A stretch of DNA of 64,000 bases from an uncultured bacterium (GCA_964604955.1 CAZSBE010000002.1:194-64193); one strand, 5' to 3'; positions 1,418-20,290 are shown, counted from the stretch's first letter. The notes: generated by a model from the sequence alone, not told the origin. Numbers and translations are program-made.

Positions 1418-1424
1418 CTCTCTC

Positions 1425-3403: not shown

Positions 3404-3425
3404 TATCCTACCTCCTCCAACTCGC

Positions 3426-3851: not shown

Positions 3852-3854
3852 TTC

Positions 3855-4331: not shown

Positions 4332-4351
4332 ATCGGCCAATTCAGCCCGTC

Positions 4352-5578
4352 CTATTCTTGTCCCAGAGCGCGTTCCACTTCTGAAATGTCGCACCCGATG
4401 TCGGTCACGAGGTCGCGTGACTTCAGCGCCTCCGGGTCCTTGAGGCCGCTTCCCGTGACCAGGAATACGACCCTCTCTTCTCGCTTGATGATGCCGTCAC
4501 GCGAAGCGCTGAGGAGCCCCGCGAACGCGGTCGACCCCGCCGGTTCCGCGAATACCCCGGTGTGGCGGCCGAGAAGCTCTATCGCCGACACTATCTCCTC
4601 ATCACTCACCGTCACCGCGGTGCCGGCTGACTCCTTAAGACCTTTGAGCGCCTTTCTCCAGTTCCGGGGCTTTCCGACCCTTATGCTGTCGGCGAGCGTC
4701 CGCGGCTCCGCGCAGTAGGCCTCGCCCCTGCCGAGGAAGCACTCCACGACGGGGCTGCAGCCCTCGGCCTGCACGCCCAGTATTCTCGGGAGGCGGTCGG
4801 TGACGCCCGCGGCCATGAGATCCTTGAATGCCTTCCACTGCCCGCTCAGGATGCAGCCGTCCCCCACGGGAACGACCAGCCAGTCGGGCACGCAGTATCC
4901 CAGCTGTTCGTATATCTCGAGCGAACACGTCTTCTTGCCCTCGACCAGGTAGGGATTGATGGCGCAGTTTCGGTTGTACCAGCCCCATTTGTCGATGGCC
5001 GCGGTGGCGACATCGAAGGCGTCCTCGTAAGTACCCTTCACCCTGAAGACCTTCGTGGCGCAGGCGCCGATCTGGTAGAGCTTGGGCTCGGGGGCGCTTT
5101 CGGGAACGAATATGTAAGAGTCGACGCCTACCGACGCCGACAGCACCGCCAGCGAGGAGGCGGCGTTGCCCGTGGAGGCGCAGGCGATGGCGTCCCTCCC
5201 GTCCTCGACGGCCATGGCGATACCGACTGCGGACGCCCGGTCCTTGAGCGAGCTGCTCGGGTTGACCGTATCGTCCTTGAGGTAAACCTCGTCGATGCCT
5301 GTAAGATCGGTCAGCTTCTCGAACCTGTAGAGCGGAGTCATGCCGACCTTGAGCATGCCGGGAGGCGGCTGCGTCAGCGGCAGGAAGTCCTGGTACCTGA
5401 AGATATTGTTCACATGCCTCGACTGCAGCGGGCTCTCCTCGAGCGAACGGCGGAGCTCGTCATAGTCGTACTCCACATCGAAGATGCCCTCGATCCCGCA
5501 TTCGGGGCAGGTCACGAAGTCGCCTTTTTCATAGCGTTTCCCGCATTTGAGGCAGACGAGACCGGTCACCTTACCCAT
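4352..5578 (-). CDS. PLP fold-type II enzyme, threonine-synthase-like, with N-terminal Cys4 zinc ribbon
   Basis: PLP-lysine motif SSSLKDRAS. Zinc ribbon CLKCGKRY...CPECG. The glycine-rich GSTGNAASS is present. The start is at MGKVTGL. The large ORF-track N-terminal extension has no support. Confidence 0.75.
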   Translation of the reverse strand: MGKVTGLVCLKCGKRYEKGDFVTCPECGIEGIFDVEYDYDELRRSLEESPLQSRHVNNIFRYQDFLPLTQPPPGMLKVGMTPLYRFEKLTDLTGIDEVYLKDDTVNPSSSLKDRASAVGIAMAVEDGRDAIACASTGNAASSLAVLSASVGVDSYIFVPESAPEPKLYQIGACATKVFRVKGTYEDAFDVATAAIDKWGWYNRNCAINPYLVEGKKTCSLEIYEQLGYCVPDWLVVPVGDGCILSGQWKAFKDLMAAGVTDRLPRILGVQAEGCSPVVECFLGRGEAYCAEPRTLADSIRVGKPRNWRKALKGLKESAGTAVTVSDEEIVSAIELLGRHTGVFAEPAGSTAFAGLLSASRDGIIKREERVVFLVTGSGLKDPEALKSRDLVTDIGCDISEVERALGQE

Positions 5579-6959
5579 TGAGGTCACCTCCACCGGCATC
5601 CCGCTCGACAAACCTCCCGTCACCGGCCGCGCCCAGGAACTTACCATCCCGGACGATGACCCTGCCCCGCTGGACGGTGACGTCGGGGAACCCGGAGAGC
5701 GTGTCGCCCTCATAGGGCGAGTAGTCGCAATTCATGTGAAGCGTCCCGGGGCTTACCCTGACTTCTCTCGCGGGGTCAATGACGATGAGATCGGCGTCGC
5801 TCCCGACGCGAATCACTCCCTTGCGGGGGTAGAGCCCGAAAAGCCTCGCCGGATTCGAACACAGCACCTCCACCAGCCTTTCCAGAGGCAGCCGCCCTTC
5901 GTTGACGCCATGCGTCATGAGTATGGGTAGAAGCGTCTCCACCCCGGGCAGCCCGAAGGGTATCTTCCGGAAGTCCCCGCCCCACATGTCCTTCTGCTTG
6001 CGGGTGAAGCTGCAGTGGTCCGTGGAAACCACCTGTATGGAGCCGTCCGCCACGGCGCCCCACAGGTAGTCGCAGTCTTCCTGGTAGCGTATCGGCGGGC
6101 AGGTGGCGTAGAGGTGGCCGTCCGGACCCTCGAATGCCCCGTTGTTGAGCATGAGATACTGGGGGCAGGTTTCAGTGAAGACCGGGTATCCGCAGGCCTG
6201 CCACTCCTCGGTGACTCTCGCCGCGTCTGATGTGGACATATGCACTATGTATACCCGGGCGCCGCTGGCGGAGGCGAGGAATATGGCGCGCTGGACGGCC
6301 TCGCTCTCCGAGAAATTCGGCCTCGACAGCGCCTGCTGGACGGCGTCCGTCCTGCCGGCGTCCACCGAGCGCCTGGTAAAGACATCTATAATGTAGGGGT
6401 TTTCGGCGTGAACGCAGACGGTGGCCCCCAGCGACGCGGCTTCCTCGAAACACTCGAACATGATGCCGTCGTCGGCCATCCATCCCTCTTCCTTGTAGAT
6501 CATGAAGAGCTTGAAACTGGGTATGCCCGCGTCGACGAGCTCCTTCATCTCCCCGCGGGTCCTGTCATTCCAGTCGGTTATGCCGCAGTGGAGGCCGAAG
6601 TCTATCGCGCTCTTTGCCGCGGCGACTTCCTTTCTCCTGGCGACGGCCTCGGCGAGCGACTCGCCGGCGGTCTGAATCGCAAAGTCGATCATTGTGGTCA
6701 CACCGCCGAAGGCTGCGGCGATCGAGCCGGAAGTGAAGTCATCCGAGGACACCGTGCCGCAGAACGGGATCTCCATGTGGACATGCACGTCTATTGCGCC
6801 CGGCAGGATGAGCTTGCCGGCCGCGTCGACCGTCGAGGCGCCTTCGATGCCGACTGCCGGCGACTCGATGGCGGCGATCTTGCCGTCCCTTATGCCTATG
6901 TCGCCCCTGTACGTCCCGGACTCGCCGGCAATAGTCCCGCCCTTAAGCACCAGATCCAT
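5571..6959 (-). CDS. Dihydropyrimidinase / D-hydantoinase (cyclic amidohydrolase)
   Basis: It starts MDLVLKGGTI. The metal-binding motif is DVHVHMEIPF, with KLFM and D...H signatures of the hydantoinase family. Confidence 0.85.
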   Translation of the reverse strand: MDLVLKGGTIAGESGTYRGDIGIRDGKIAAIESPAVGIEGASTVDAAGKLILPGAIDVHVHMEIPFCGTVSSDDFTSGSIAAAFGGVTTMIDFAIQTAGESLAEAVARRKEVAAAKSAIDFGLHCGITDWNDRTRGEMKELVDAGIPSFKLFMIYKEEGWMADDGIMFECFEEAASLGATVCVHAENPYIIDVFTRRSVDAGRTDAVQQALSRPNFSESEAVQRAIFLASASGARVYIVHMSTSDAARVTEEWQACGYPVFTETCPQYLMLNNGAFEGPDGHLYATCPPIRYQEDCDYLWGAVADGSIQVVSTDHCSFTRKQKDMWGGDFRKIPFGLPGVETLLPILMTHGVNEGRLPLERLVEVLCSNPARLFGLYPRKGVIRVGSDADLIVIDPAREVRVSPGTLHMNCDYSPYEGDTLSGFPDVTVQRGRVIVRDGKFLGAAGDGRFVERDAGGGDLNG

Positions 6960-8166
6960 AGCGTTTCCCTTCTTCTTCTCCGCCGGCCTCGTCGGCGTCG
7001 ACCCTCTCCATGGTGATGCATCCGGGTGAGGGGCAGACCTGCATGCAGAGCGAACAGCCGAGGCATCTGGATTCGCTGACAACCGGGTAGCCGCCTGGTC
7101 CGATGCTGATGGCGTTGCCGCCCGCGTCCCTGCAGGAGATGTAGCAGAGGTCGTCCCTGAGGCACATCCCGGTTCTTATGCGGGGCACCGACCTGGTCGT
7201 CCCCAGGTCTTCGTATGTGACGATGTTCTTAAGCAGCCGTCCCTCCATCGCCCTGACGCCGGCGAAGCTGTTCCGCTTGAGGTAGTCCGTGAGGCCGCGG
7301 GCGAGGTCATCCACCATGGCAAACCCGTGGAACATGACTCCCGTGCAGACCTGTATCGCGCGTGCGCCGACGAGCAGGAACTCGCAGGCGTCCTGCCAGG
7401 CCATGATGCCGCCGACGCCGCTCACTTCAAGCGAAGTCGCCGCGCGCAGGTCCGCCACGACCCTCAGGGCCATTGGTTTCACCGGCGCCCCCGAAAGGCC
7501 CCCCGGCGAGGTGAGGCCGTCGATTGACGGATGTATTTCGAGGTTCTCGATGTCGATCCGGCCGAGACCCGGCACGGTGTTTATGGCGGAAACGCCCCGC
7601 GCGCCGGCGCTTTCGGCGACCTGCGCCACTGTGGCGACGTCGCCGGCGTTGGAGCCCAGTTTGACGATGATGGGAACGCGCGCGGCATCCCGGACGGCGG
7701 CAGTCACTTCCCGCGTCAGCTCCGGGTTCTGCCCGATCGAGAGGCCCATTTCATGGTTGCCGACTCCATGCGGGCACGACAGGTTGAGCTCGAGCGCGTC
7801 CGCGCCGGCCCGGCCGCACCTGTCGGCCATCAGTCTCCAGTCGGCGAGCTTGTAGGCGGGAGCGGCGATGCTCGCGATGAGCATCCTGTCCGGGAAGGTC
7901 TTCTTCACAGACTTGATGTCCTCGAGCCAGGCGTCGAGGTCGCGGTCGCTCAGGAGCTCGAGGTTGAGAAAGCCGCCACCCACGCTTGCGAACCTGGGGC
8001 TCAGGCGGACGCCCGAAGCGGGCTCAAGGGATATGGTCTTGGTCACGGCACCCGCCCAGCCGGCTTCGAAGCCGCGGGCGATATGACCCGCGTCCCGGGT
8101 GGCCGGGCCCGAAGCCAGGAGGAATGGGCTCCTCAGGGCGAATCCACAGAAATCGGTGCTGAGCAT
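6943..8166 (-). CDS. preA: PreA-like dihydropyrimidine dehydrogenase subunit (DHODH-like domain plus 2x[4Fe-4S] ferredoxin domain)
   Basis: Dihydroorotate-dehydrogenase-like TIM-barrel core. C-terminal CLGCSLCMQVCPSPGC ferredoxin motif. Confidence 0.8.
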   Translation of the reverse strand: MLSTDFCGFALRSPFLLASGPATRDAGHIARGFEAGWAGAVTKTISLEPASGVRLSPRFASVGGGFLNLELLSDRDLDAWLEDIKSVKKTFPDRMLIASIAAPAYKLADWRLMADRCGRAGADALELNLSCPHGVGNHEMGLSIGQNPELTREVTAAVRDAARVPIIVKLGSNAGDVATVAQVAESAGARGVSAINTVPGLGRIDIENLEIHPSIDGLTSPGGLSGAPVKPMALRVVADLRAATSLEVSGVGGIMAWQDACEFLLVGARAIQVCTGVMFHGFAMVDDLARGLTDYLKRNSFAGVRAMEGRLLKNIVTYEDLGTTRSVPRIRTGMCLRDDLCYISCRDAGGNAISIGPGGYPVVSESRCLGCSLCMQVCPSPGCITMERVDADEAGGEEEGKRYGSGA

Positions 8167-8187: not shown

Positions 8188-9051
8188 CTATTGCCGAGGT
8201 TTGACGAGTTCTTCGTAGGTGTCCGGTCTCCTACCCTCATAAAAATGCCAGAGACCCCTCACGCTTTCAATCAAAGAAAGATCCAGGTCGGCGACAATGA
8301 CATCGTCTCCGGAATCGCTTCCCTTTGCAAGGACTTTGCCCGCCGGGTCGCAGAAATAGCTCGAGCCGTAGTACTTGCCGCTCTCCCAGGGCTTCTCGAG
8401 ACCCACGCGGTTCAGCGCCCCCACGAAATAGCCGTTGGCGACGGCGTGGGCCCGCTGCTCTATATCCCAGAGATGGCGCGACAGCCCCTCGACGGTCGCC
8501 GACGGGTTGAAGACGATCTCGGCCCCTTTAAGACCGAGCGCCCTCGCCCCCTCGGGGAAGTGCCGGTCATAACATACGTAAATGCCCACGCGCCCGAACT
8601 CCGTGTCAAAGACGGGATAGCCCATGTCGCCGGGCTCGAAGTAGAACTTCTCGCGAAAGCCCTCCAGGTCCGGAAGGTGCATCTTCCTGTACTTGCCCAC
8701 GACTTCACCGTCGGTTCCTATGAGCACCGCCGTGTTGAAGTACTTGCCGCCTGCCTTCTCCGCGAGGGGAGCGACGAGCACAATGCCCAGCCGCCTGGCG
8801 ACGTTTCCCATCCTGGCCGTGGTCTCGCCGGGTACGGTCTCGGCGAGGTCAAGCCACCGCCGGTCCTCCCCGGCCGGAAAATAGGGCGCGTAGAAAAGCT
8901 CCTGAAGGCAGACGATGCTGGATCCGCGCGAAGCCGCCTCTTCTATCATGGGAATCTGCCTTGCGATCATGGCCTCTTTTACGGACTGGATCGGGCCCGA
9001 CGCATCGGGGCATCCCGTCTGGATCAAGGCGCATGTCACTGTCCTGGCCAT
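8188..9051 (-). CDS. N-carbamoyl-amino-acid / beta-ureidopropionase-type amidohydrolase (nitrilase superfamily)
   Basis: Nitrilase-superfamily catalytic cysteine context VCYDRHFPE and overall CN-hydrolase fold. It follows the hydantoinase and DPD genes. Confidence 0.8.
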   Translation of the reverse strand: MARTVTCALIQTGCPDASGPIQSVKEAMIARQIPMIEEAASRGSSIVCLQELFYAPYFPAGEDRRWLDLAETVPGETTARMGNVARRLGIVLVAPLAEKAGGKYFNTAVLIGTDGEVVGKYRKMHLPDLEGFREKFYFEPGDMGYPVFDTEFGRVGIYVCYDRHFPEGARALGLKGAEIVFNPSATVEGLSRHLWDIEQRAHAVANGYFVGALNRVGLEKPWESGKYYGSSYFCDPAGKVLAKGSDSGDDVIVADLDLSLIESVRGLWHFYEGRRPDTYEELVKPRQ

Positions 9052-9117
9052 CGCTTTCCTCTCCGGGGAAATGCGCGTACTGATCCCGGCCTGTCTGCCT
9101 TCGGAATCAGGGCTTGG

Positions 9118-9146
9118 CGCCTAAATTAAAGCCGCTACAGGGCGGC
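9118..9146 (-). terminator. Possible intrinsic terminator after the PMT-like gene
   Basis: On the minus strand there is GCCGC-CCUGUA-GCGGC, then UUUAAUUU. The stem is only 5 bp, so this is weak. Confidence 0.25.
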
Positions 9147-9204
9147 AGGATAGTATAACACCGGAGCGGAGGAGTGTCAATCGGGGCAGCGCCGGGGGCC
9201 GGGA

Positions 9205-11619
9205 CTAGGGGCCTTCGAGTCTCCCCAGGGCGGCCTGGGCCTGGTCGCGCGCCGTCCCCGGCGGGGCGGTCTCGAGGTATTTTCTGTACGTCTCGCGGGC
9301 GCGGGCCCCGTCGCCCGTTCTCTCGTATGCCACCGCCAGGTTGCCCCGGGCCGTGAGGAGCAGCGGGCTGGCCTCGAGGGCGCGCTCGAAATAACGGATT
9401 GCCGAATCGGGCTCGTCCGTCCTCAAGAAAGCCAGCCCCATGTCGGAGAGCAGGTTCGCATCATCCGGAGCGACTTCGAGTCCGGCCCTCACGGCACCGA
9501 ACGCCTCGTCGCAGCGTCCCAGACCCATGAGAACCGTAGCCTCCGAATGATAGGGGTGAGGACTGTGAGGCTGGATGTCCCGTGCCGTCCTGATCTGCTC
9601 GATGCCGAGGTCGGGGTTGCCGGTATAGGCCAGGGCTATGCCCAGGCCGATATGGGCGTTGACGGTTGCGTTGTCCCGCGACAGGGCCTCGCGGTAATAG
9701 TGCATGGCCGTGGTGTAATCGCGCTTCCTTGAATAGGCATTGCCCAGGTTGGAGTACATCGGAGCTGGATTCGGGTTGCCCCTGAGGGCCTTTTCGTACT
9801 CGGTGATGGCCAGGTCGACATTGCCGCCCATATAATAGAGGCTGGCGAGCATGTCATGGGCTTCGAAGAAGTCGGGGTCGATGGCGACGGCCCGCTCCGC
9901 CATCAGGAACGACTCGCGCGGCGAGCCCAGCTCGAGAAGAAGTCTGGAGGCGTATATATGCGTGCCCGCATCGTCGCCAGCCGCGGCAACCGCCGCTCCG
10001 ACCGATGCCCTCGCGCCCGCTGTATCCCCGGCCGCTATACACCATCTCGCCAGGTGAAGGTGATACGTGCCGCTGAGAAGCCTCGAGTTGTAGTCCCTCC
10101 TGTCGCCGTCGCGTCCGCGCACCTCAAAGCGCTCGGGCGGCAAGCACTCTCTGCCCTCGCTCTCAAGGGCATACACCATGCCGCAGATATCGGCGTCGTA
10201 CCCGGCGACCACCGGCGGCACGGGCCCCACAAGCGCGAGGTCCGCCGGGCCCAAGGCCTCCACGAACCACTGCACGCATTCATCCACGTTCCGGGGGCCC
10301 GCGGGAAGACCCGCCGCCCGCGGGTTGGACGAGCCCAGCACGAAGACCCGGGCCGGGGCGTTTTCCACAAGCGAGACGTAGAGCAGCGGAAAATCGAGGG
10401 CGCTGCCGCTTCCTATCAGCAACGGCTCCGGGGCGCTCTCATCGCGCGCGCTCTCGACCGCGGCCATCGCATAGTCATGTGCGAACCAGGCGTCATGCCG
10501 CCTCTCGAGCGAGACGAGGTTGGTAACGAATATGAGCGAAACGCCGGCGAGGACGGCCGGCCCCGCCGCCCTGTTGAGCCTCGCCAGTCTCTCGATGAGG
10601 AAGCCGGCGCCGAGGGCGGCGAAGACCCCTACCGTGATGAGGGCCGGGAAGACGTGGCTGTCGATATCCGGGATATTGTATGCGGCCGAGTGGACCCCGT
10701 AGAAAACGAAGACCAAAAGCGCGCCGGCCAGCAGTCTCCATCTCTTGATCGAGACGGCCAGCCCGAGAAGCGCCAGGGCCGAAAGCCACAGGCCCCCCTG
10801 CGCGAACATGAGCCGCAGATAGGCGCCGAAATCGGCGAGCCTCGCGCCGGCTTCGAGGGGTTTCACTCTCCACTTGTAGCCCTGAGCGGTAATGTGGGAG
10901 ATGAAACCGTCAAGCGTCGACGTCTCGCCCCAGGTCAGGGGCGGAGCCTGCGCCGAGCGTATGGGTATGTAAAGCCACACCGTGAGCCCGAGCATCAGAA
11001 AGAGCAGCGCGACGACGACCGCGTTGAGCCTCGGCCTCACCCCCGATACGAGAAGGCCTATTACGGCCGCGGCCAGCGCGTACACCAGGCTGAGGTGATG
11101 GGATACTGCGAGCCCGCCCGCGAGTCCCATGAGCACAAGCACGCTGTCACCGCGCCTCGCGCCGGCCAGGGCAATCAGCAGCAGAGCCGTGACGAAAACG
11201 GCGTTAAGCGTATAGACCTCCGCCCCGGTGGCCTGCAGCCACCAGGCTTCGCGCGTGGCGAGGCCCAGGGCCACCACGACCCCCGCCCACCTTCCGGCCC
11301 CGAGGCCCCTGGCGACCAGATAGACGAAAGCGGTGAGAACCGAGGCGAGAACCGCGGACATGAGATTGTAGCGGTATGCCACCGACCCGAAGGCGAAGAT
11401 GCTGGAGAATATCCTGCCCAGCATGAGATAGAGCGGATAGCCGGGCGGATGCGCGACGCTCAGCGTGCGCGACGCTGCGATCAGCTCCCCGGCGTCCCCG
11501 GGCAGCACGCTGGGCGCCAGCGTGACGATGTAGATGAGAAGGGTCACGAAGAAGATGCAGACACATGCAATAATGTCCGGGCGGGCGCCCGCATCCGGTC
11601 GTCCGGTCAAAGAAATCAT
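9205..11619 (-). CDS. Polytopic membrane protein (DUF2723 / PMT-like GT-C fold) with C-terminal TPR repeats
   Basis: About 11 predicted TM helices in the N-terminal 470 aa. The C-terminus has multiple TPR units (for example AYSRKRDYTTAMHYYREAL). Confidence 0.6.
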   Translation of the reverse strand: MISLTGRPDAGARPDIIACVCIFFVTLLIYIVTLAPSVLPGDAGELIAASRTLSVAHPPGYPLYLMLGRIFSSIFAFGSVAYRYNLMSAVLASVLTAFVYLVARGLGAGRWAGVVVALGLATREAWWLQATGAEVYTLNAVFVTALLLIALAGARRGDSVLVLMGLAGGLAVSHHLSLVYALAAAVIGLLVSGVRPRLNAVVVALLFLMLGLTVWLYIPIRSAQAPPLTWGETSTLDGFISHITAQGYKWRVKPLEAGARLADFGAYLRLMFAQGGLWLSALALLGLAVSIKRWRLLAGALLVFVFYGVHSAAYNIPDIDSHVFPALITVGVFAALGAGFLIERLARLNRAAGPAVLAGVSLIFVTNLVSLERRHDAWFAHDYAMAAVESARDESAPEPLLIGSGSALDFPLLYVSLVENAPARVFVLGSSNPRAAGLPAGPRNVDECVQWFVEALGPADLALVGPVPPVVAGYDADICGMVYALESEGRECLPPERFEVRGRDGDRRDYNSRLLSGTYHLHLARWCIAAGDTAGARASVGAAVAAAGDDAGTHIYASRLLLELGSPRESFLMAERAVAIDPDFFEAHDMLASLYYMGGNVDLAITEYEKALRGNPNPAPMYSNLGNAYSRKRDYTTAMHYYREALSRDNATVNAHIGLGIALAYTGNPDLGIEQIRTARDIQPHSPHPYHSEATVLMGLGRCDEAFGAVRAGLEVAPDDANLLSDMGLAFLRTDEPDSAIRYFERALEASPLLLTARGNLAVAYERTGDGARARETYRKYLETAPPGTARDQAQAALGRLEGP

Positions 11620-13736
11620 CTGCCTCTCGACACAACTGCGAACTTCGTATGGGCGGACAGGTCCGCTGTCTCGTCACGCACGTTCATCTTGAGGACGCAC
11701 ACATAGAGCCCCGGAGCGAGGTGCCCGGCGTTTCCAGAGAGGCTTGCGAGCGGCAACTTGAACTCGGGTGCATCGATCAGCCCCTCACCCCTGAGAACCC
11801 GGAGGCCCGTCACGTCAAAGACCTCGATGAGGTAGCTTGCAAGGAAGTTCGTCTGGCTCGTGAATATGTCGGCTGTTATGACCGCGTCGTTCGGACTCTC
11901 AACCGGATTGGGGTAGAAATGCAGGTTCTCGAGCCTGGCGGTCACCGGGCTTACAGTCAGCGTCACGGTCGCCTGGTTGTTGCCCACATCGCTTTCTACA
12001 TCTTCGTCCACCGGAACAAGTGATATGGAGTAATCGATGTCGCCGTAGTCGCTCAGGCTGGTTTTCCAGGTGGCGGCCGCCTCGGCGATGCCACCGGCGA
12101 CCGCTTCAAGCCCAACCGGGCCCTCATGAACCACCGGGCCCGTGCCGTCCCTGCCCTGCCTCACGGTGAACGTGTAGACGGCCGGCCCCGAAAGGGGGCC
12201 TCCCACGTTCAGCGCCCTGACGGTCGCTGTAAGATCGCTTCCGGCCACCAGCGGGTAGCCGCTCGACCGGCCCTCCCAGCCGAACTCAATGCTCGCGGGA
12301 GTCACCACGAGGTCGCTCAGGGAGTCCCCCGGAATGTCGGCAAAGCGGAGCATGTACGCAGCGACCAGCCGCACGTTGTCGGCGACCTGGTCGAAGTCGA
12401 CGTTGCCGAGCGTGTCGCCCAGCGTGTGATAATGGGGAGTCAACGGTTCGGGGAGATAGCCCAATGTCTGGGCTCCGATCATGAGGGCGGGAATCCCCTG
12501 CCACCAGAACGGTGCATGATCGCTGTTGTGGATCTCCGGGCGAAAGCGGTCTATGAATTGCGTCTGCAGGCCCAGGTTGTCCGCCGTCTCCTGAAGGGCC
12601 TCCGTAATCCAGCCATCGCGATATCCATATACGATCTCGATCCACTTCTCGGCTTCGGTGTATCCGACCATGTCGATGTTGATCACCCCTATTATCGTGT
12701 CATTCGCCGCGAGGTTTTCAGCATAGTAATCGCTGCCAAGCAGCCCGATCTCCTCGGCGGACCACAGGGCGAAAGTGATGCCGAAATCGAACTTCTGACC
12801 GGCGAGCAGCCGCGCGCACTCGAGTACCGTGGTCGCGCCCGAAGCGTTGTCATCCGCTCCCGGGGCAGCGTCTGTCCGCCAGTCCCAGCCCGGCTGCCTG
12901 ACTCCTATGGCGTCGTAGTGGCCACAGATGATATAACGGGCGCTCGTTCTGGTGCCGGGCAGGTCGGCGACTATGTTCACGAAAACAGTATCCTGACCCT
13001 TGTAATACTCGGGCAGCTCCGGTTCGAACTCCTGCTCCCATACCGCCCCGCCTGCGGGAAGAACGTACTGCTCCAGTCGCTGCCTTATATAGGGAGTAAT
13101 GTTCTGTTTGAGGTCATAACGAGCACAGAACCGCGACCTGTACCTGCCGGAGGAGCCATCGAAGTTCATGAAGTATATGGTCTTCTCCACGCTATCGGGA
13201 CTCGCCCCCTCGGTAATCGACCTGATAAAATGAGCGCGCGGCCGCGTCATCGGTCTCTCTGCAAGCAGCTTTTCATGTAGTTCCTCACCTGCAGGCCGGC
13301 CGAGGAGGGCGTTGACCGGGGTGAATTTCACTCGCGAGATAGAGTAGCCGCTGTCCAGGACCATGTAGGCCCGGTCGACTTCACCCGAGAAAACCGTGAT
13401 GCGCTCTGTGCGGTAAACGAGGTCCACGCCTGCCGCTCCCAGAATCTCATCCGGCACCGGATAGGGCGAGTTCCACAGGGGCGCGTCACCTCTGGACCCC
13501 AGCACGTGGACTCCTCCGGCCGAAAGAGCAGCCGGATCGCCTCCCGGCACATCGACAAGCAGCTCGCCGGGCCCGGTGAAAAACCCCCTGAGCGGCTCCA
13601 TACGCGCTTCCAGGATAGCCTCATCCGCCGTCATCACCACCAGCTGCGAACCCGGTTCACCTACCGGGGCTCCCCATATCAGCAGCGTGGCCAGAACCGC
13701 AAGACCGCATGAGACGAATTGCGCCGGCTTTTTCAT
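11616..13736 (-). CDS. Secreted M28-family zinc aminopeptidase with C-terminal FlgD-Ig/T9SS-type sorting domain
   Basis: Signal peptide MKKPAQFVSCGLAVLATLLIW. M28 motifs HYDAIG, DDNASG and SAEEIGLLGS. The tail FYPNPVES...YVCVLKMNVRDE resembles a Por/FlgD C-terminal domain. Confidence 0.75.
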   Translation of the reverse strand: MKKPAQFVSCGLAVLATLLIWGAPVGEPGSQLVVMTADEAILEARMEPLRGFFTGPGELLVDVPGGDPAALSAGGVHVLGSRGDAPLWNSPYPVPDEILGAAGVDLVYRTERITVFSGEVDRAYMVLDSGYSISRVKFTPVNALLGRPAGEELHEKLLAERPMTRPRAHFIRSITEGASPDSVEKTIYFMNFDGSSGRYRSRFCARYDLKQNITPYIRQRLEQYVLPAGGAVWEQEFEPELPEYYKGQDTVFVNIVADLPGTRTSARYIICGHYDAIGVRQPGWDWRTDAAPGADDNASGATTVLECARLLAGQKFDFGITFALWSAEEIGLLGSDYYAENLAANDTIIGVINIDMVGYTEAEKWIEIVYGYRDGWITEALQETADNLGLQTQFIDRFRPEIHNSDHAPFWWQGIPALMIGAQTLGYLPEPLTPHYHTLGDTLGNVDFDQVADNVRLVAAYMLRFADIPGDSLSDLVVTPASIEFGWEGRSSGYPLVAGSDLTATVRALNVGGPLSGPAVYTFTVRQGRDGTGPVVHEGPVGLEAVAGGIAEAAATWKTSLSDYGDIDYSISLVPVDEDVESDVGNNQATVTLTVSPVTARLENLHFYPNPVESPNDAVITADIFTSQTNFLASYLIEVFDVTGLRVLRGEGLIDAPEFKLPLASLSGNAGHLAPGLYVCVLKMNVRDETADLSAHTKFAVVSRGR

Positions 13737-13747
13737 CAGTAGTCTCC

Positions 13748-15616
13748 TTAGAACCTCACTCCGTAGTCGAACCTGAGGTCTTCTCTTCTCTCGCCGGTAT
13801 CGTAGGAAGTCGAACCGAACTTGAGCGTGGCCGACCCGGCGCTCCCCAGTTTGAGAACCCCTATAAGATACCACCGCGAGCCGTCGCTTTTCAACATCTC
13901 TAATGACGGGTAGTACGGGAGCCCGGGTTCGTACTGGAAGAGGCGCGCGGAGTAGTCTTCCACTCTGAATGCGTGAAAGCCGCCCTTGAGCGTGAACCGC
14001 CGGGCCGCCTCCAGGCGCGTATCGAGCCGCACCAGGTCCGAGTAGTAGCTCTCTCGGCGCCCCCCGGCCTCCACCCTGGACCGCTGGCCTTCGATGCGGA
14101 GCCTGAGCCAGAGGATTCTGTGCGGCCTGTACTCGAGGTCGAGCCGGGTGCGGTATCTTGACCTCTCCGACGTCACATCGTCGATCCCCTCGGGCGGCTC
14201 CTCGGCCGCAGTTATCTTCTCGGACGCCTCCATCCGGAAGTCTCCGAAGCCGATGCCGAGTTCGAAGAGCGTCTCAGAACCGGTCGGGTTCAGGCCCCTG
14301 CCGGCCCCGAGGTCTTTGCGGTGAATGTCATTGCTGATCGCGATCAGCGTGCGCGGAGCCGGTTTCAGCGTGAGGCGAAGGAGGAGCCCCTCCTCGCCCG
14401 CCGTCTCGCGCGCGTAGGACGAGAATGGCCGGGAGTGAAGGCTGAGATAAGTCCGCGCATACTTGCGGCCGAGCGCCAGAAGGTCCAGGCCGGGCCGCTC
14501 GAAAGCGATGCCCCCCAGGAAGGCCGTTCCTCCGGCCCCTGAGAAAGCGGCCTCCCCGAATACGCCGAAATCGTCACCCATGTAGGTGAGGTCCACGGAT
14601 GCCAGGCGGTTGGTCCTGCCTTCGACCCAGGGGAAGGCGCCGGCGGCGAATCCCCCGCCGAACCTCGCAAGCGAGAGGCTCATGCCCCCGCGCACCCGCC
14701 CGCGGCTTGAGCGCAGCGCGAATCCTGCAAGGTCTTCGCGGAGCGTATCCCTGCCTTCGGTCTCGGTCGGCGTTACGTGGATTCCCGAGGTCCGTATGTA
14801 CTCGACCTCGCCGTCTTCGTTTAAGGTGGCGTCCAGATGGGTGCTGGATAGCGCGACGCAGAATTCGATGCCGCGGGCCGCGAGCGAGAGCGCCGCCCCG
14901 CCGAGGGCGAAGTTCTCGACCGTCGAGGTGTAAGGCTTGAGCCCGAAAGCCCGGCGGCTCAGTCGCCACGGGCCTATGGTGGACGGCGAGTAGCCGTAAG
15001 GGCCCGAGAAAACGAGCCCGTAGCCCGAGTTCAGGAAGTAGCTGCCCGCCACGATATGCACCCTCGACCACCTCTTCTGCACATAGACGGACTGGAAATC
15101 GTTCAGGCGAGTCTCAAGCCGGTCTTTCTCGACCGTAAGGCCCAGTCCCAGGCCGGAGTAGTCACCTCGAACCGTAAAGTAGGTCTTGTTGGCTTCGATC
15201 GCTGACCGCGGGGGGCTGGATATGAACCTCAGCCTTGCGGTCCCCGTCGGGCGCAACGCTTTCTCAACCGGCTTCACCACGACGAACGGGGCAAGCAGTT
15301 CAACCGTCTCGGCCGTCACGCCTTCGATTCGCGTGAGGTCGTCAAGCGAGCCGAGTTCGCCCGCCTCCCTCAGGTCGACTATCCGGGCGGCAAGCCACGG
15401 GCTGACCCACGGAAGCGCGGCCATGGTTTCGGGGTCGGCGTCGGTCAGATTGATGGGGTCTTTAAGGGCGGCGTCCAGAATGCTGAGAAGGTCCAGGTAC
15501 TCCTCCTCGGACTCCACGTTCTTGAATATCTCATCGCCGGTTTGGCCGAAACACGGGCCGGAGGCTGCGAGGAGAATAAAGCACACTGCGAGCGGAAGGG
15601 GAATGAACGATCTCAC
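13748..15616 (-). CDS. Outer-membrane beta-barrel protein with N-terminal ComEA-like helix-hairpin-helix domain
   Basis: Signal peptide. The HhH motif is INLTDADPETMAALPWVSPWLAARIVDLREAGELGSLDDLTRIEGV. There is a long beta-rich region ending in the C-terminal aromatic ...DYGVRF. Confidence 0.65.
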   Translation of the reverse strand: MRSFIPLPLAVCFILLAASGPCFGQTGDEIFKNVESEEEYLDLLSILDAALKDPINLTDADPETMAALPWVSPWLAARIVDLREAGELGSLDDLTRIEGVTAETVELLAPFVVVKPVEKALRPTGTARLRFISSPPRSAIEANKTYFTVRGDYSGLGLGLTVEKDRLETRLNDFQSVYVQKRWSRVHIVAGSYFLNSGYGLVFSGPYGYSPSTIGPWRLSRRAFGLKPYTSTVENFALGGAALSLAARGIEFCVALSSTHLDATLNEDGEVEYIRTSGIHVTPTETEGRDTLREDLAGFALRSSRGRVRGGMSLSLARFGGGFAAGAFPWVEGRTNRLASVDLTYMGDDFGVFGEAAFSGAGGTAFLGGIAFERPGLDLLALGRKYARTYLSLHSRPFSSYARETAGEEGLLLRLTLKPAPRTLIAISNDIHRKDLGAGRGLNPTGSETLFELGIGFGDFRMEASEKITAAEEPPEGIDDVTSERSRYRTRLDLEYRPHRILWLRLRIEGQRSRVEAGGRRESYYSDLVRLDTRLEAARRFTLKGGFHAFRVEDYSARLFQYEPGLPYYPSLEMLKSDGSRWYLIGVLKLGSAGSATLKFGSTSYDTGERREDLRFDYGVRF

Positions 15617-16440
15617 TCGCCGGTTCCGGTAATGTAGAAGACATCGACCTGAGGCCGGCAGAGGAACCTGAATGGAAATATGTTGGTGCCGATGCCTTTG
15701 TTGACATTGAGGCGAAAATCGCCGAGATCGAAGAGGCCCGAGATATACTCGCTCCTGGAAGCGTAGGGGATCAGGCTCACAATGGCGGGCACTCCTATCT
15801 GACCGCCGTGGGTATGGCCGGACAGCACCAGGTCCACGCCGGCCTCCCTGAGGTCGTCGAGGATGTAATCGGGATGGAAGTGCGTAAGCACGATCACGGG
15901 TTTGGTTCCGTCCACCTCCGAGAGCGCGGTCCTGGGTCTGGCGCGGTGGGTCACGGGGTCGTCGAGTCCGACCAGCAGGAACTCGCCGCAGTCAACGCTC
16001 TCGTTGAAGAGGAATCGGATATTCGGCGAATCTTCCCAGAGCGCGCCTCTGCGCCTGGCGTCCTGAATGACGGCATCGGCATTGCCGCACACGGCGAATA
16101 TGCCCTTGCGAGCCCGCAGCATGGAGGTAAACGCGAGGCCTTCTGCGAGCGAGCTGCGCCCTTTAAGAAGGTCACCTGTGATGAAGACATAGTCAGGCCC
16201 GATCTCCCGCACTATCTTCACGAGTCTCCTCTCCCTCAAGCCGACCCGGGTCGTGTGAGTATCCGCTATATGGACAATGCACACGGGCTCGTCCGGGAAC
16301 CCCCGTATGGTGAGGTTGTGGGTCTCCACCCTTATCCAGTAGGGCTCGATGATGCCCGCGTAGATTAGAAAGCCGACGAGTAGGGACAGCCACCAGATGT
16401 TCTTCTTTGATATGCGCATTTCTTGGAGTGAAGCTAACAC
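15613..16440 (-). CDS. Membrane-anchored calcineurin-like metallophosphoesterase
   Basis: N-terminal TM helix. Motifs DTH, GDLL, GNAD and LSGHTHGGQ. Confidence 0.8.
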   Translation of the reverse strand: MLASLQEMRISKKNIWWLSLLVGFLIYAGIIEPYWIRVETHNLTIRGFPDEPVCIVHIADTHTTRVGLRERRLVKIVREIGPDYVFITGDLLKGRSSLAEGLAFTSMLRARKGIFAVCGNADAVIQDARRRGALWEDSPNIRFLFNESVDCGEFLLVGLDDPVTHRARPRTALSEVDGTKPVIVLTHFHPDYILDDLREAGVDLVLSGHTHGGQIGVPAIVSLIPYASRSEYISGLFDLGDFRLNVNKGIGTNIFPFRFLCRPQVDVFYITGTGE

Positions 16441-16552
16441 AGGCCCGGTTCGCGGTCAATAGAGCCTCCATGTCCGGACGGGCGGGTCGCCGGCAGGGGT
16501 TTGAAAGGCGGGCGGGATTATCAGCGCGGGAACCATCCGCCCGCCAGACAAA

Positions 16553-16577
16553 CTTGTTGCCTATATATGGCAACAAG
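16553..16577. promoter_or_regulatory. Perfect inverted repeat CTTGTTGCC-N7(TATATAT)-GGCAACAAG, candidate operator
   Basis: The 9-bp arms are exact reverse complements around an AT-only spacer. It lies in the 227-bp intergenic region about 110-135 bp upstream of the metallophosphoesterase start. Confidence 0.45.
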
Positions 16578-16667
16578 CGTGCCAGCGGGCAGGCGTACCT
16601 GTCGGTTCTCGGCGCGGGCATCGCCCTGAAACGTCCGAAACCTGACGGCGCCGTCCGTGGAGTGACG

Positions 16668-17519
16668 CTACTGCCATGAGTAGGCGATACCGGCTTCATG
16701 TGTCATCCCCAGATCGAAGTTGACGGTCGATGAAACGTCCAGGCCCAGCCCTCCGGCGCGAAGACCGAGGCCGAACGAGAACTCCATCGGGAAAGTCGAT
16801 GAGCCCAGCCTCACGAGTATTCCACGCATCGCACGCCACTCGAGGCCCGTGGCATAAGCCGTACGGAGGCCGTTCTCTTTCTCCAGCCGGAAGCCGCAGG
16901 CCGCCGACCCCGAGACCGCGTACCCGACGCCCGCGCCCACCCGCCGTGGAACGCCGCCACCCGCGACGCCCAGGCCGGAGGCGAAGGCGTTGCCGATATC
17001 GAAACTGACCCTGAGCCGGGGAGTGACGCGCGCGTATATGAGGAGGTCGAAAGCCATGCAGCGGCCTTCGTAGAGACCGGGAGATATGGCCTCGCCCAGC
17101 CTCAGCCCGGGCTGGAGCCAGAGGTCGCCGCGGCGGAGGGCAACTGAGAAAGCCGCGGTCTGCTCGAAGTAGCCGGGAGCCGCGAGGCCGCTATAGGAGA
17201 AACATGCCCCGGCCCGGCCGCCGCTCAGGGTGACTTTGCCGCGGAGAGCGACGACGTCGATGCCGGCGACGCCGAAAGGCCGGTAGCCGTACGCGTCCAC
17301 AACGCCTTCGGACCGGCGCGCGCCCGAAGCGTGAAAGACCGAGCTGGTCGAACCGTCCACGAGGCCCAGGGCTTCGGGACCCGAACAGCTTCGCTCCGCC
17401 GGGGAAAACGGCCTGAGTTCGAAGGCCGCCTCGGAGGGGGCGGCCAGGAAAAGGCATGAAACAAACAGGCCGGAGAGCGCCAGAGCCCCGCCGAGACGCG
17501 GACGGGCATGTTTCTCCAT
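16668..17519 (-). CDS. Secreted outer-membrane beta-barrel-like protein (hypothetical)
   Basis: Signal peptide LALSGLFVSCLFLAAPSEA. Gly/aromatic-rich alternating pattern. Aromatic C-terminal ...AYSWQ. Confidence 0.5.
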   Translation of the reverse strand: MEKHARPRLGGALALSGLFVSCLFLAAPSEAAFELRPFSPAERSCSGPEALGLVDGSTSSVFHASGARRSEGVVDAYGYRPFGVAGIDVVALRGKVTLSGGRAGACFSYSGLAAPGYFEQTAAFSVALRRGDLWLQPGLRLGEAISPGLYEGRCMAFDLLIYARVTPRLRVSFDIGNAFASGLGVAGGGVPRRVGAGVGYAVSGSAACGFRLEKENGLRTAYATGLEWRAMRGILVRLGSSTFPMEFSFGLGLRAGGLGLDVSSTVNFDLGMTHEAGIAYSWQ

Positions 17520-17524
17520 GACCC

Positions 17525-19219
17525 TCACCTCCGCACCAGCACGACAGGCATCTTCGAGTGAATCGTCCGCCCGCCGCCGGTGGGCGAGGCCTCCAGAAGG
17601 ACTATATAGACTCCGATCGGCGCCGGGCGCCCGTCCTTCACGCTGCCGTCCCAGAAGGTGATCCTTCTCTCCTCAACCAGGTCCCCGTCCAGAAGCGTCT
17701 TGAACGGCCGGCCGTTGATGTCGAACACCTTGAGCCTCACGACCGCCGGTGCCGGCATTTCAACCGAGACCGAGAGCAGGTCATCGGCGCCATCGCCGTC
17801 CGGCGAAAAAGTCCCCGGCCGGATCTTGAGATAGCCCCCGGGCTCGGAGAAAGTCACCGACACGCTGTTCGGCCGGCCCGGGCTTGCCGGCGACGACCCG
17901 TAGTGCGGCGACCAGTTGGAGGCACGCTCCGATTTAGCCTGGGAGTCGATCCTCTCGACGGAGCGCCCGGGCTTGCCCCAGGCCGCGCTGTATGCAACCG
18001 AATCCACGCGTGTCCCGAAGGCGTCCCGCAGGACGACCATGTCGGCGTAGCCGCGCGGGCCTTCTGTATCGTTGAGGGTCGGCCAGCCCCCGGCCGGCTT
18101 AAGTGCGGCGCAGCCCGCGCCCGGGTAGGCGGCCAGGAAGTCGTCCTCGTCCTCGACGAGCAGGAGATAACCTCCCGGCGCGAGCAGGGGGCCCGCTTCA
18201 GCCAGCTGCCTCCGCTTACCGCCCGAGTCCTCGAGCGTCCAGCCCTCGAGGCTTACGAACGATGCGCTTCTATTCAGGACCTCCACCCACTCGCATCCGC
18301 CTGAGGCCGGCTTGAAGATGAACTCGTTGACCACCACCGGCGCGGGCCAGATGAGGATGCTAGTCGCGAGCGTGTCGTTGTGATGCCACCTGTCGAGAGG
18401 GTGCGTCTGCCAGAGGCGGGCGCCGTGAAGTCCCTCTCCGACATTGGGGATGTCGACGGCGATCCTGCGGTATGCGCCCGGCTCGATGTCCGCATCGAGC
18501 CGCGACGAGTCCCGGCAGCCGCAACACGCCAGATGCACCCAGGCGCCGGCGCCGCACGAGCTCCCGCCGACATTCGCGATGTTCGAGATCACCTGAAGCG
18601 CGGCGTGGCCGGGTTGCGCATAGCGGGACAGGCAGGCCCTGGTTACGGCGAGGTCGAATGGCGGGTGATTGAAGTCGCCCGGGGAAGGCGCGGGGAACGG
18701 GGAGAAGTCAGCCGAGTTGTCGCCCGTGTCGATGCCGTCGGGGCTGCGGCCCAGGCTCGAGCCCGCCGCCGGCCCCGTTGCCGGAGAGCCTTCGTAGTAC
18801 TCTGCGAAGTCATGGGCGCCCCAGCCCACTACGTCCGCGGCGGACCCGGGCGAGTCGAGCCGGCAGGCGTCGGGTCCATTTTGAAGGTCAAGCGAGGTTA
18901 TGAAATCGGGCGCGGGCCGGACGGCCTCCTCCCCTATGACGAAGAAACCGCCTGCTCTTATGGTGTCAGCGCGCGTGCCCTGCCACTCGCTCTTCCACCT
19001 CCCGGCATGCGCGCCGTTCCCGGTCGCCACTTCATGATAGTGCAGACATATGTCGGCACCGGTTCCGTTGTAGAGCTCTATGAACTCCCGACCGGCGTCC
19101 GCCCCGTCGGGATCGTACAGTACTTCATTGATGACGACACCGGTGGAACCCGCGGAGCATACGCGGGGGAGCGTCAGAAGCAGCAGCGTTGCGATTGTCT
19201 TTTCCCATCCCATCATCAT
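17525..19219 (-). CDS. Secreted lamin-tail-domain (LTD) protein with two LTD repeats and C-terminal FlgD-Ig-like domain
   Basis: Start MMMGWEKTIATLLLLTL signal. LTD signatures are VVINEVLYDP...EFIELYN and VVVNEFIFKP...EWVEVLN. The C-terminal FSPDGDGADD motif fits a FlgD-Ig-like domain. The ORF-track N-terminal extension is translated repeat element. Confidence 0.7.
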   Translation of the reverse strand: MMMGWEKTIATLLLLTLPRVCSAGSTGVVINEVLYDPDGADAGREFIELYNGTGADICLHYHEVATGNGAHAGRWKSEWQGTRADTIRAGGFFVIGEEAVRPAPDFITSLDLQNGPDACRLDSPGSAADVVGWGAHDFAEYYEGSPATGPAAGSSLGRSPDGIDTGDNSADFSPFPAPSPGDFNHPPFDLAVTRACLSRYAQPGHAALQVISNIANVGGSSCGAGAWVHLACCGCRDSSRLDADIEPGAYRRIAVDIPNVGEGLHGARLWQTHPLDRWHHNDTLATSILIWPAPVVVNEFIFKPASGGCEWVEVLNRSASFVSLEGWTLEDSGGKRRQLAEAGPLLAPGGYLLLVEDEDDFLAAYPGAGCAALKPAGGWPTLNDTEGPRGYADMVVLRDAFGTRVDSVAYSAAWGKPGRSVERIDSQAKSERASNWSPHYGSSPASPGRPNSVSVTFSEPGGYLKIRPGTFSPDGDGADDLLSVSVEMPAPAVVRLKVFDINGRPFKTLLDGDLVEERRITFWDGSVKDGRPAPIGVYIVLLEASPTGGGRTIHSKMPVVLVRR

Positions 19220-19270
19220 CACCGCATCAATCGTCGCCCGCCGCCCCGCCCGAGTCAAGCTCCCCATGAG

Positions 19271-19318
19271 GGGGTCAGGTCTTAAAATGCACAAGGGGTC
19301 AGGTCTTGAAATGCACAA
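19271..19318 (+). repeat. REP-like element, two tandem 24-bp units (GGGGTCAGGTCTT[A/G]AAATGCACAA), upstream flank of the transposase gene
   Basis: Direct reading. The units are exact except for one A/G difference. Confidence 0.9.
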
Positions 19319-19372
19319 CACCCGGTGGCCCCACCATTCCCTCCGAATCTGGCACGGAGGTTGCAATTGTAA

Positions 19373-20236
19373 ATGCCCGCTATGGTAAGACCGATACGCA
19401 TTGAAGCCCCGGGAGGTGTCTACCACATCACTTCACGGGGAAACGCCAAACAGACGATCTTCCGGGACGCAGTGGATTACCGGTGTTTCTTCTCCATCCT
19501 GGGGGATGTCGCCGGCGACTGCGGGTGGCAGTGTTACGCCTATTGCCTCATGCCGAATCACTACCACCTGGTGCTGATGACACCCAGCGGAGCGCTCTCG
19601 AGGGGGATGCGGCAGATCAACGGGGTATACGCGCAGAGGTTCCATTGCCGCCATGCTTCCGTCGGCCACGTCTTCCAGGGAAGGTTCAAGTCCATTCTCG
19701 TCGACAGGGAGGCGTACCTGCTTGAAGTGTGCCGCTACGTCGTGCTCAACCCGGTGAGAGCGGGTCTTGTTCGAGAATGCGGCGACTGGCGCTGGTCCAG
19801 CTATCTTGCCACGTTGGGACGCGACCCGAAGCCCTCGTTCCTGGCCAGCGAATGGCTGCTCGGACAGTTCGCCAGGTCTCCGGCGAGGGCGCGGACCGCA
19901 TTCGTCAGATTCGTGGAGGACGGCCTCAAGGCCACCAGCCCGTTGGAGAACATCCGGGGAGGTGTCTTTCTGGGAAACGAGGCCTTTGTGTCCGGTTTCT
20001 CGGCGCAACTTGCCCGCAAGAGGGCCGAGCGCGACTTTCCCCGTGTGCAGCGCCACGCGGACCGGCCGCCGCTCTCGGAGATACTGCGCGCGACGGGGGG
20101 AAGCCCCCGGACAGGCCGGCAGATCGCGGAGGCGCGGGAGCGCTGGGGCTACACCATCACGGAGATTGCGCGGTATCTTCATCTGCACCGGAACACGGTC
20201 GCGGCTCTCGCAAGAAGAGCGGGCGAGCAGGACTGA
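19373..20236 (+). CDS. Y1 HUH tyrosine transposase, IS200/IS605-like and REP-associated (RAYT-type), with C-terminal HTH region
   Basis: 287 aa. HuH motif HYHLVL. Downstream catalytic Tyr region RWSSYLAT. It is the only plus-strand gene in the window. It is flanked by inverted copies of the short repeat. Confidence 0.75.
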   Translation: MPAMVRPIRIEAPGGVYHITSRGNAKQTIFRDAVDYRCFFSILGDVAGDCGWQCYAYCLMPNHYHLVLMTPSGALSRGMRQINGVYAQRFHCRHASVGHVFQGRFKSILVDREAYLLEVCRYVVLNPVRAGLVRECGDWRWSSYLATLGRDPKPSFLASEWLLGQFARSPARARTAFVRFVEDGLKATSPLENIRGGVFLGNEAFVSGFSAQLARKRAERDFPRVQRHADRPPLSEILRATGGSPRTGRQIAEARERWGYTITEIARYLHLHRNTVAALARRAGEQD

Positions 20237-20254: not shown

Positions 20255-20290
20255 TGTGCATTTTAAGACCTGACCCCGGGGTCTGACCCC
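20255..20290 (-). repeat. Inverted REP-like unit (TTGTGCATTTTAAGACCTGACCCC) plus palindromic tail GGGGTC-T-GACCCC, downstream flank of the transposase
   Basis: It is the exact reverse complement of the first unit at 19271. It also supplies the last codons and stop of gpmA. Confidence 0.9.

Follow-up and report, generated by a model that had tools for sequence, protein, structure and literature searches.

The DNA examined here is a stretch of 64,000 nucleotides from an uncultured bacterium (GCA_964604955.1 CAZSBE010000002.1:194-64193), called the window below. At 11616-19219 on the minus strand it carries five co-directional open reading frames (ORFs). In the order in which they would be transcribed these encode a lamin-tail-domain (LTD) protein, a small outer-membrane beta-barrel, a calcineurin-like metallophosphoesterase, a protein in which a ComEA-type helix-hairpin-helix (HhH) domain is followed by a large barrel (the HhH-barrel), and an M28 aminopeptidase. 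An earlier description made from the sequence alone, referred to as the sequence-only reading, had proposed five consecutive same-strand genes forming a secreted and outer-membrane module for the capture or degradation of extracellular DNA. All five ORFs were found within the limits that it gave. Family membership was judged by Pfam gathering scores and NCBIfam cutoff scores, and the calls of M28, HHH_3, Metallophos and two LTD domains all lay above the Pfam thresholds. The two tail calls, a FlgD-type immunoglobulin (Ig)-like domain on the LTD protein and a sorting domain on the M28 protein, were found only below threshold. The features are collected in Table 1.

Table 1. Genes and regulatory features of the five-gene module and of the genes 3' of it.
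Feature	Position	Strand	Description
LTD protein	17525-19219	-	signal peptide, two lamin-tail domains, middle Ig-like region, C-terminal Ig-like tail
Small outer-membrane beta-barrel	16668-17528	-	PorV/PorQ/FadL-like fold, ~14 strands
Sigma-54-type promoter TGGCACGCTTGTTGC	16570-16584	-	exact match TGGCAC-N5-TTGC
Conserved leader element with GGTTCCCGCGC	16495-16545	-	inverted repeat 3' of promoter
Calcineurin-like metallophosphoesterase, YaeI/LpxG type	15613-16440	-	Metallophos; one N-terminal helix anchor
HhH-barrel	13748-15616	-	signal peptide, N-terminal ComEA-type HHH_3, barrel ~24 strands
M28 aminopeptidase	11616-13739	-	signal peptide; C-terminal tail resembling type IX secretion system (T9SS) type A sorting domain
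GT-C glycosyltransferase (TMEM260-like), C-terminal tetratricopeptide (TPR) repeats	9205-11619	-	TMEM260-like 86.5 bits + TPR families
CN_hydrolase	8188-9051	-	214 bits
PreA	6943-8166	-	398 bits vs NCBIfam cutoff 335
Dihydropyrimidinase	5571-7082	-	487 bits vs NCBIfam cutoff 393

The genes are closely packed. The LTD and small-barrel genes overlap by 4 bp and are followed by a gap of 227 bp before the phosphoesterase gene. The phosphoesterase and HhH-barrel genes again overlap by 4 bp, 8 bp separate the HhH-barrel gene from the M28 gene, and the latter overlaps the GT-C gene by 4 bp. The overlapping stops and starts indicate co-translation. Given that a sigma-54-type promoter sits in the 227-bp gap, the module comprises at least two transcription units, the second running from the phosphoesterase to the M28 gene and beyond.

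The order LTD - small barrel - phosphoesterase - HhH-barrel - M28 was observed in about 16 related loci at identities down to 30%. Twelve loci reached through homologues of the HhH-barrel (L001, L002, L004-L013) keep the order as far as their contigs extend, it runs on in L014, another contig of the genome that holds L013, and it is present in three distant loci of 30-38% identity (L097-L099). This recurrence means that the neighbourhood is not a chance arrangement. Conservation in related genomes had been proposed as a check on the module, to be given up if the genes were not syntenic, and the five genes proved syntenic. The relatives that carry a name are metagenome-assembled genomes (MAGs) of Candidatus Eisenbacteria; the others are unclassified MAGs.

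Genes for the breakdown of nucleobases are physically coupled to the module. In L005, L006, L012, L097 and L098 the HhH-barrel and M28 genes are separated by PreT-like (Pyr_redox_2 + Fer4_20) and PreA-like (DHO_dh + Fer4_21) genes, with stops and starts that overlap or abut in the last two, and in L099 only a PreA-type gene follows the HhH-barrel. Among loci with enough downstream DNA, amidohydrolase, PALP and aminotransferase genes follow the module in the window and in L001, L002, L004, L007, L010 and L097; one amidohydrolase of L007 is SsnA (475 bits, cutoff 444). In L002 and in L014, where the contig ends, the gene after M28 encodes an LTD joined to Endonuclease_1 (229.6 bits) and a Por_Secre_tail. 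In the window the selenium-cofactor protein YqeC scored 140 bits against an NCBIfam cutoff of 73 and is followed by XdhC-like and MocA/YgfJ-like genes.

The promoter TGGCACGCTTGTTGC was found by aligning the 227-bp gap and occupies the same relative place in 10 related loci. It has the GG at -24 and the GC at -12 of a sigma-54 promoter at the exact spacing TGGCAC-N5-TTGC, and on this motif the phosphoesterase-to-M28 unit looks sigma-54 dependent. Sigma-54 control is typical of nitrogen-scavenging operons, and the rut pyrimidine operon of E. coli is sigma-54/NtrC dependent. There are three exact matches to the motif in the 64 kb. Besides the one in the gap they are at 19350-19364 (+), 9 nt before the annotated start of a Y1 transposase ORF, and at 53809-53823 (-), upstream of the ORF at 52774-53757.

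About 30 nt downstream of the promoter lies the leader element, GGG(Y)GGA-N-GGTTCCCGCGC-N5-7-YCC(R)CCC. Its central 11-mer is near-invariant, being exact or altered at one position in 11 related loci, and the element was seen in the window, L001 (9009-9077), L005, L006, L007, L009-L013 and L098. RNAalifold gave a 12-pair hairpin with one compensatory pair only (UA to CG), and an Rfam scan of 9000-19600 for a riboswitch at E<=1 returned only a chance microRNA match. It may act as a new kind of cis-regulatory RNA, or at the DNA level as an operator.

Both secreted proteins have identifiable domains and less clear tails. The LTD protein starts at an ATG triplet at 19219 with a signal-peptide-like N-terminus and matches LTD (PF00932) in two stretches, at 94.3 bits against a cutoff of 34.3. 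Its tail scored 13 bits with FlgD_ig (PF13860) in the whole protein and 15.6 when taken alone (cutoff 27), and solved FlgD chains match it weakly (E=0.001). The T9SS type B family CHU_C (PF13585) fits the tail better than FlgD_ig, at 21.3 bits against 27, with TIGR04131 at 13.9 against 35, so that neither cutoff is reached; the LTD protein of L097 has CHU_C on record at E<=1e-5. In 9 loci the LTD gene has kept its place upstream of the small-barrel gene. The M28 protein scored 127.1 bits with Peptidase_M28. Eleven relatives keep the motifs C.H.DA, APG.dDN, S.EE, N.DM and P.YH...D, which carry the ligands of the co-catalytic zinc (H, D, E(E), D and H), and the nearest solved proteins are bacterial leucyl aminopeptidases. 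Its tail stays below the cutoffs of Por_Secre_tail (PF18962; 16.0 bits, cutoff 27) and TIGR04183 (16.4, cutoff 23), while the conserved motifs H..PNP and PGLY are consistent with a T9SS type A tail.

The GT-C gene lies 3' of M28 in L001, L004, L005, L006, L008 and L012 and is absent in L002, L007, L010, L097 and L098; its membership of the operon varies between lineages. In animals, TMEM260 enzymes attach O-mannose to Ig-like domains, and the GT-C enzyme might glycosylate the Ig-like domains of the secreted proteins of the module.

The sequence-only reading had called the third protein a membrane-anchored metallophosphoesterase. This is borne out by a Metallophos (PF00149) score of 45.2 bits against 21.5 and by one N-terminal hydrophobic helix. 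The motifs DxH, GD, GNxD, H and GHxH are conserved in 11 relatives, motif III reading GNAD instead of GNHD. The best NCBIfam matches were YaeI (NF008460), 93.2 bits against 188, and LpxG (NF033458), 87.3 against 350, both short of their equivalog cutoffs, and no solved structure matched at E<=0.001. The protein resembles YaeI and LpxG in a near full-length match, a single N-terminal helix and retained metal-binding motifs, but differs in its motif III and in scores of about half the YaeI cutoff and about a quarter of the LpxG cutoff.

The small barrel, of 286 amino acids (aa), is without a Pfam or NCBIfam match. At E<=0.01 it matched none of PorV/PorQ (NF033709), T9SS_OM_PorV (NF033710) and T9SS_PorQ (NF033711), whose cutoffs are 90, 250 and 220 bits respectively. 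Its fold is the FadL-like 14-strand barrel of the PorV/PorQ family, and 2 of 13 close relatives match that family at E ~0.03. In a low-GC locus, L003, a protein of 273 aa abuts the HhH-barrel gene and matches the PorV/PorQ family at E=2.4e-18 (66.8 bits, cutoff 90). This protein is homologous to the small barrel of the window (BLAST 4e-9, hhalign 95.9%).

The HhH-barrel is a protein of 622 aa with a C-terminus like that of an outer-membrane protein (...DYGVRF). Its AlphaFold model, at a mean predicted local distance difference test (pLDDT) score of 71, has about 24 long strands after an N-terminal helical domain, and residues 54-112 match HHH_3 (PF12836) at 31.8 bits against a cutoff of 27, which agrees with the earlier description of a ComEA-HhH domain fused to an outer-membrane barrel. 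The domain aligns to the solved ComEA domains 2duy and 8dss, while the ComEA subfamily (TIGR01259) scored only 19.5 bits against 152. No solved structure related to the barrel part was found. Sequence conservation in the family peaks at residues 198-240 and 276-290, in GYGLVFSGPYGYSPST...PYTSTVENF and TSGIHVT..E, with E234, S257, D262 and H280 among the residues that never vary. Both stretches fall outside the strands, where the model has its lowest confidence, and could form a plug or an active site inside the barrel. An exhaustive profile search gave 3,697 cluster representatives (50% identity) at E<=1e-30, most of them full-length at 660-720 aa; a profile search with alignment A3 returned the same 23 proteins only.

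The two barrels also occur together outside the module. The small barrel lies directly upstream of the HhH-barrel in 61 of 63 loci with enough upstream DNA, at a median gap of -1 nt. These 63 were drawn from 80 metagenome loci found with a Bacteroidota-type alignment, which, from their composition and PorV-family matches, appear to be Bacteroidota. The same pair is present in a KSB1 locus, and the family occurs in lineages of the Fibrobacteres-Chlorobi-Bacteroidetes (FCB) group, Eisenbacteria, KSB1 and Calditrichota among them. This distribution indicates that the barrel pair is much older than the five-gene module. The only conserved functional neighbours of the pair in the Bacteroidota-like loci were housekeeping genes (purE, purK, aroA, aroB, mgsA). 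Of these, purE stands directly upstream of the pair on the same strand in 20 of 81 Bacteroidota-like loci (L027, L030, L031 and 17 others), often with purK, and the 20 loci span the whole divergence of the set (35-85% HhH-barrel identity). The purE adjacency adds a second and independent link between the pair and nucleotide metabolism. In the KSB1 locus, L095, a DUF4835 gene at 5804-6688 (-) stands upstream of the pair in divergent orientation, next to a gene for a Big_5 protein.

The reading favoured here, tentatively and at somewhat less than even confidence, is that an Eisenbacteria-like FCB bacterium uses the five genes to scavenge nucleic acids or nucleotides, and that they form the envelope end of a gene island for nucleobase catabolism. 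The link to catabolism is drawn from the conserved and partly translationally coupled gene order, the nuclease variant and the sigma-54 promoter. The earlier proposal of extracellular DNA scavenging is therefore retained in part: a connection with nucleic-acid breakdown stands through the context (PreT/PreA, dihydropyrimidinase, SsnA, the LTD-Endonuclease I protein and the sigma-54 promoter), whereas the arguments from the HhH and LTD domains do not. The LTD domains themselves are present, but the step from them to DNA binding at the cell surface is weak. The LTD of ExeM is dispensable for nuclease activity in vivo and helps only in vitro (PMC6085458), and LTDs are generally associated with membrane-associated hydrolases, calcineurin-like phosphoesterases included (PMC6085458).

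The domain identities, folds, gene order, physical coupling to catabolic genes and conserved promoter were observed, and a scheme that would join them must supply a substrate, a direction of transport, a topology for the phosphoesterase, a contact between the barrels and display at the surface. The LTD and M28 proteins would be exported and shown at the cell surface through their Ig-like C-terminal tails, as would the LTD-Endonuclease I protein in some relatives, with the PorV/PorQ-like small barrel probably acting as surface anchor or shuttle. The surface proteins would bind and trim extracellular nucleoprotein or nucleic-acid material, and the fragments would pass the outer membrane through the ~24-strand HhH-barrel together with the PorV-like barrel. 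The membrane-anchored phosphoesterase, if it faces the periplasm, would take phosphate off the fragments, and the bases would be degraded by the products of the co-located PreT/PreA, dihydropyrimidinase, carbamoyl-amidase, SsnA and selenium-dependent hydroxylase genes. Sigma-54 would drive the phosphoesterase-to-M28 operon, as it does nitrogen-scavenging operons. A precedent for such an arrangement is given by the co-located DNA-degradation loci of Ca. Izemoplasmatales, which include an LTD-nuclease protein (PMC8289736).

Several points weigh against this reading. All of the results are computational, from sequence comparison and predicted structures. M28 is a peptidase and not a nucleic-acid enzyme. 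Endonuclease I is present in only 2 of the ~16 loci; the module of the window contains no nuclease, and no Endonuclease I homologue was found elsewhere in the window. No PreT homologue was found anywhere in the window, where PreA is present alone. A sigma-70-like site at 9180-9152, upstream of the catabolic genes of the window, suggests that these have a separate promoter. The side of the membrane on which the phosphoesterase lies rests on the positive-inside rule only, and the nearest named families, YaeI and LpxG, are both sub-cutoff. In the Bacteroidota-like and KSB1 loci the barrel pair is unlinked to nuclease, phosphoesterase, M28 or LTD genes, and its ancestral role may therefore be general.

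The HhH domain provides a further difficulty. The two hairpins of the window protein, which in ComEA bind DNA phosphates, read PWVSP and EGVTA, against PGIGP and KGIGP in 2duy. Among 166 family members the glycines of hairpin 1 are absent in 165, and hairpin 2 retains its first glycine only, the second position often being Asp. The domain has a net charge of -8 in the window and a median of -3 to -4 in the family; of the two ComEA domains, that of Thermus (2duy) has +1 to +2 and the other (8dss) -2. Because the hairpin glycines are lost and the domain is acidic, DNA binding by it is doubtful; the assignment of the domain holds, and the earlier argument from it to DNA binding at the surface is weak. 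The likeness to ComEA lies in an N-terminal segment of 60 residues in the large barrel, which exceeds the HHH_3 threshold. The differences are the fusion to a large barrel, the change of the GIG hairpins to WVS and GVT, and the charge.

A broader proposal, possible but held with distinctly more reserve, concerns the pair itself. The PorV-like 14-strand barrel and the HhH-tipped ~24-strand barrel may form an unrecognised two-barrel outer-membrane transport system, spread across FCB lineages (Bacteroidota-like, KSB1, Calditrichota and Eisenbacteria), which in Eisenbacteria would have been recruited, with the phosphoesterase and surface proteins, into a sigma-54-controlled nucleic-acid utilisation locus. 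By analogy with PorV and SprA, the PorV-like partner would cap or gate the large barrel for the import of nucleic-acid-derived or other anionic substrates. The PorV-like character of the small barrel, the ancient barrel pair and the place of the module at the head of a catabolic operon all go beyond the sequence-only reading.

The main rival to the scavenging reading is a T9SS-related module for export and anchoring, in which both barrels would form a dedicated outer-membrane complex that exports or tethers the tailed LTD and M28 proteins. There would then be no role in nucleic-acid use, and the catabolic neighbours would reflect lineage synteny. The tails of the LTD and M28 proteins do resemble type B and type A sorting domains, the nuclease of L002 has a bona fide Por_Secre_tail, the small barrel has a PorV-like fold, and the family is found in the FCB lineages named above. 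In addition, a gene for type B cargo often has its cognate barrel gene next to it downstream, as in sprB-sprF, which counts in favour of this rival. However, 61 of 63 Bacteroidota-like loci have the pair by itself, without a cargo gene beside it, and every tail in the window is sub-threshold. A T9SS role also gives no reason for a phosphoesterase gene to separate the two barrel genes, or for PreT/PreA genes to intervene between the HhH-barrel gene and M28, and no T9SS core genes (sprA/sov, porK, porL, porM, porN) were seen among the genes scanned in the 64 kb. The small barrel is itself unlike PorV and PorQ in its length (286 aa against 345-390), in reaching no PorV, PorQ or PorV_fam threshold and in its conserved partner, which is the ~24-strand HhH-barrel and not SprA, PorU or PorZ. 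A T9SS function for the module is on balance the less probable of the two readings, and lipid A remodelling, competence and mere synteny are less likely still.

Remodelling of envelope lipid or lipopolysaccharide would bring together an LpxG-like pyrophosphatase, a FadL-fold barrel for hydrophobic molecules and an ArnT-like GT-C enzyme, whose targets would be lipid A or components of the outer membrane. LpxG scored only 87 bits, well short of 350 and slightly less than YaeI. Moreover, the GT-C gene is missing from the module in the five loci listed earlier (L002, L007, L010, L097, L098), and the LTD, M28 and PreT/PreA genes have no place in such a scheme, which is accordingly judged improbable.

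Competence had also been raised by the sequence-only reading. Here the HhH-barrel would be an outer-membrane DNA pore with a built-in ComEA-like ratchet, in lineages without a PilQ secretin. A ComEA-type HHH_3 domain fused in front of a wide barrel, where it is expected to face the periplasm, speaks for this, as does the fact that passage of DNA across the outer membrane in Bacteroidota is unsettled (PMC8459023, PMC11532111). The ComEA proteins of transformation in Bacteroidota appear different, however, though for Riemerella this is based on domain position only (PMC11532111, PMC8459023). As members of the HhH-barrel family, two candidates were considered and set aside. P. gingivalis ComEA (PGN_0421) has its domain at residues 94-165 and is hence a small protein. 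Riemerella RA0C_RS02645 is a poor fit, since residues 236-301 form its HhH domain and both Firmicutes and Proteobacteria have homologues of it, although identity is not strictly excluded. The transformation genes of Riemerella and P. gingivalis appear to encode other proteins, a small ComEA and a CarboxypepD_reg barrel with a DUF5689 protein. Loss of the hairpin glycines and the acidity of the domain extend across the family, the neighbours are catabolic and not recombination genes, and ComEC, DprA and ComF genes were not found among the window genes scanned. The competence role is thus unsupported and appears quite improbable.

The weakest alternative, that the genes form no functional unit and are neighbours through inherited synteny, could draw on the full five-gene loci all coming from one phylum-level lineage and on the split into at least two transcription units, but it is very unlikely given that the order persists to 30% identity despite rearranged flanks, that the barrel pair is conserved across phyla and that overlapping stops and starts indicate co-translation.

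Under the scavenging reading the locus can be compared with several known systems. It shares with LTD-bearing extracellular nucleases (Shewanella ExeM) and with the DNA-degradation loci of Ca. Izemoplasmatales secreted LTD proteins co-located with phosphoesterases, nucleases and nucleobase catabolism, the LTD-Endonuclease I fusions being those of L002 and L014. It differs in that the LTD protein of the window has no nuclease domain, the organism is diderm, the locus is built on two outer-membrane barrels, and no nucleoside transporter or phosphate ATP-binding cassette (ABC) genes were seen here. With the SusC/SusD loci of Bacteroidota it has in common surface binding and hydrolytic proteins, a barrel and downstream catabolic enzymes in one co-regulated locus. 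Unlike them it has no TonB-dependent SusC, no identified plug or TonB box and no SusD lipoprotein, and its barrels belong to other families. The catabolic part resembles the clusters of PreT/PreA, dihydropyrimidinase and beta-ureidopropionase and those of YqeB/XdhC, YqeC, YgfJ and SsnA; PreA, dihydropyrimidinase, YqeC and SsnA pass their cutoffs in the window or its relatives. Neither the reductive pyrimidine clusters nor those around the selenium-dependent molybdenum hydroxylase are known to have been described with an embedded outer-membrane and secreted module.

None of the enzyme domains is unusual, and nutrient-utilisation loci are an established idea. The novelty lies in the make-up of the module, in its position within a pyrimidine/purine catabolic operon and in its core, a widespread and uncharacterised pair of PorV-like barrel and HhH-barrel. 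No published description of the HhH-barrel, of the pair or of the module was found in the open-access literature. Extracellular DNA and RNA are major pools of nitrogen and phosphorus in soils and sediments, and the passage of nucleic-acid fragments across the outer membrane is poorly known in diderms outside Proteobacteria, for which the locus is a testable candidate. The HhH-barrel family is very large (~3,700 clusters at 50% identity), without a characterised member or a Pfam barrel model, and it is consistently paired with a PorV-like barrel, in lineages related to the well-studied Bacteroidota as elsewhere. Its role would fill a gap in FCB outer-membrane biology, whether it lies in nutrient import, T9SS-related export or DNA uptake.

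The remainder of the window was surveyed as well. Its ten largest ORFs have housekeeping functions (PriA, Rho, RF, SelB, RecJ, pol III delta, MurA-like, GAF/HD sensors), and among the window genes scanned there were no nucleoside transporters, as there were no T9SS core genes. Selenium-related genes lie at 28-8166 and 34878-36767 and comprise YqeC, the XdhC-like and MocA/YgfJ-like maturation genes, PreA, dihydropyrimidinase and the selenocysteine elongation factor SelB; this gene content suggests selenium-dependent purine/pyrimidine catabolism.

A 22-nt repeat, GTGCATTTYAAGACCTGACCCC, is present in the window in 9 copies where 0 are expected. The copies are often in tandem and are all intergenic, at 19271-19316, 20256-20277, 22873-22919, 25559-25626 and 56085-56106. 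Two of them lie between the LTD gene and a divergent gene for an IS200-like Y1 transposase (19373-20236; Y1_Tnp 42 bits), and a Y1_Tnp gene adjoins the LTD gene also in L001, L009 and L097. The repeats and the transposase look like repetitive extragenic palindromic (REP) elements with their REP-associated tyrosine transposase (RAYT).

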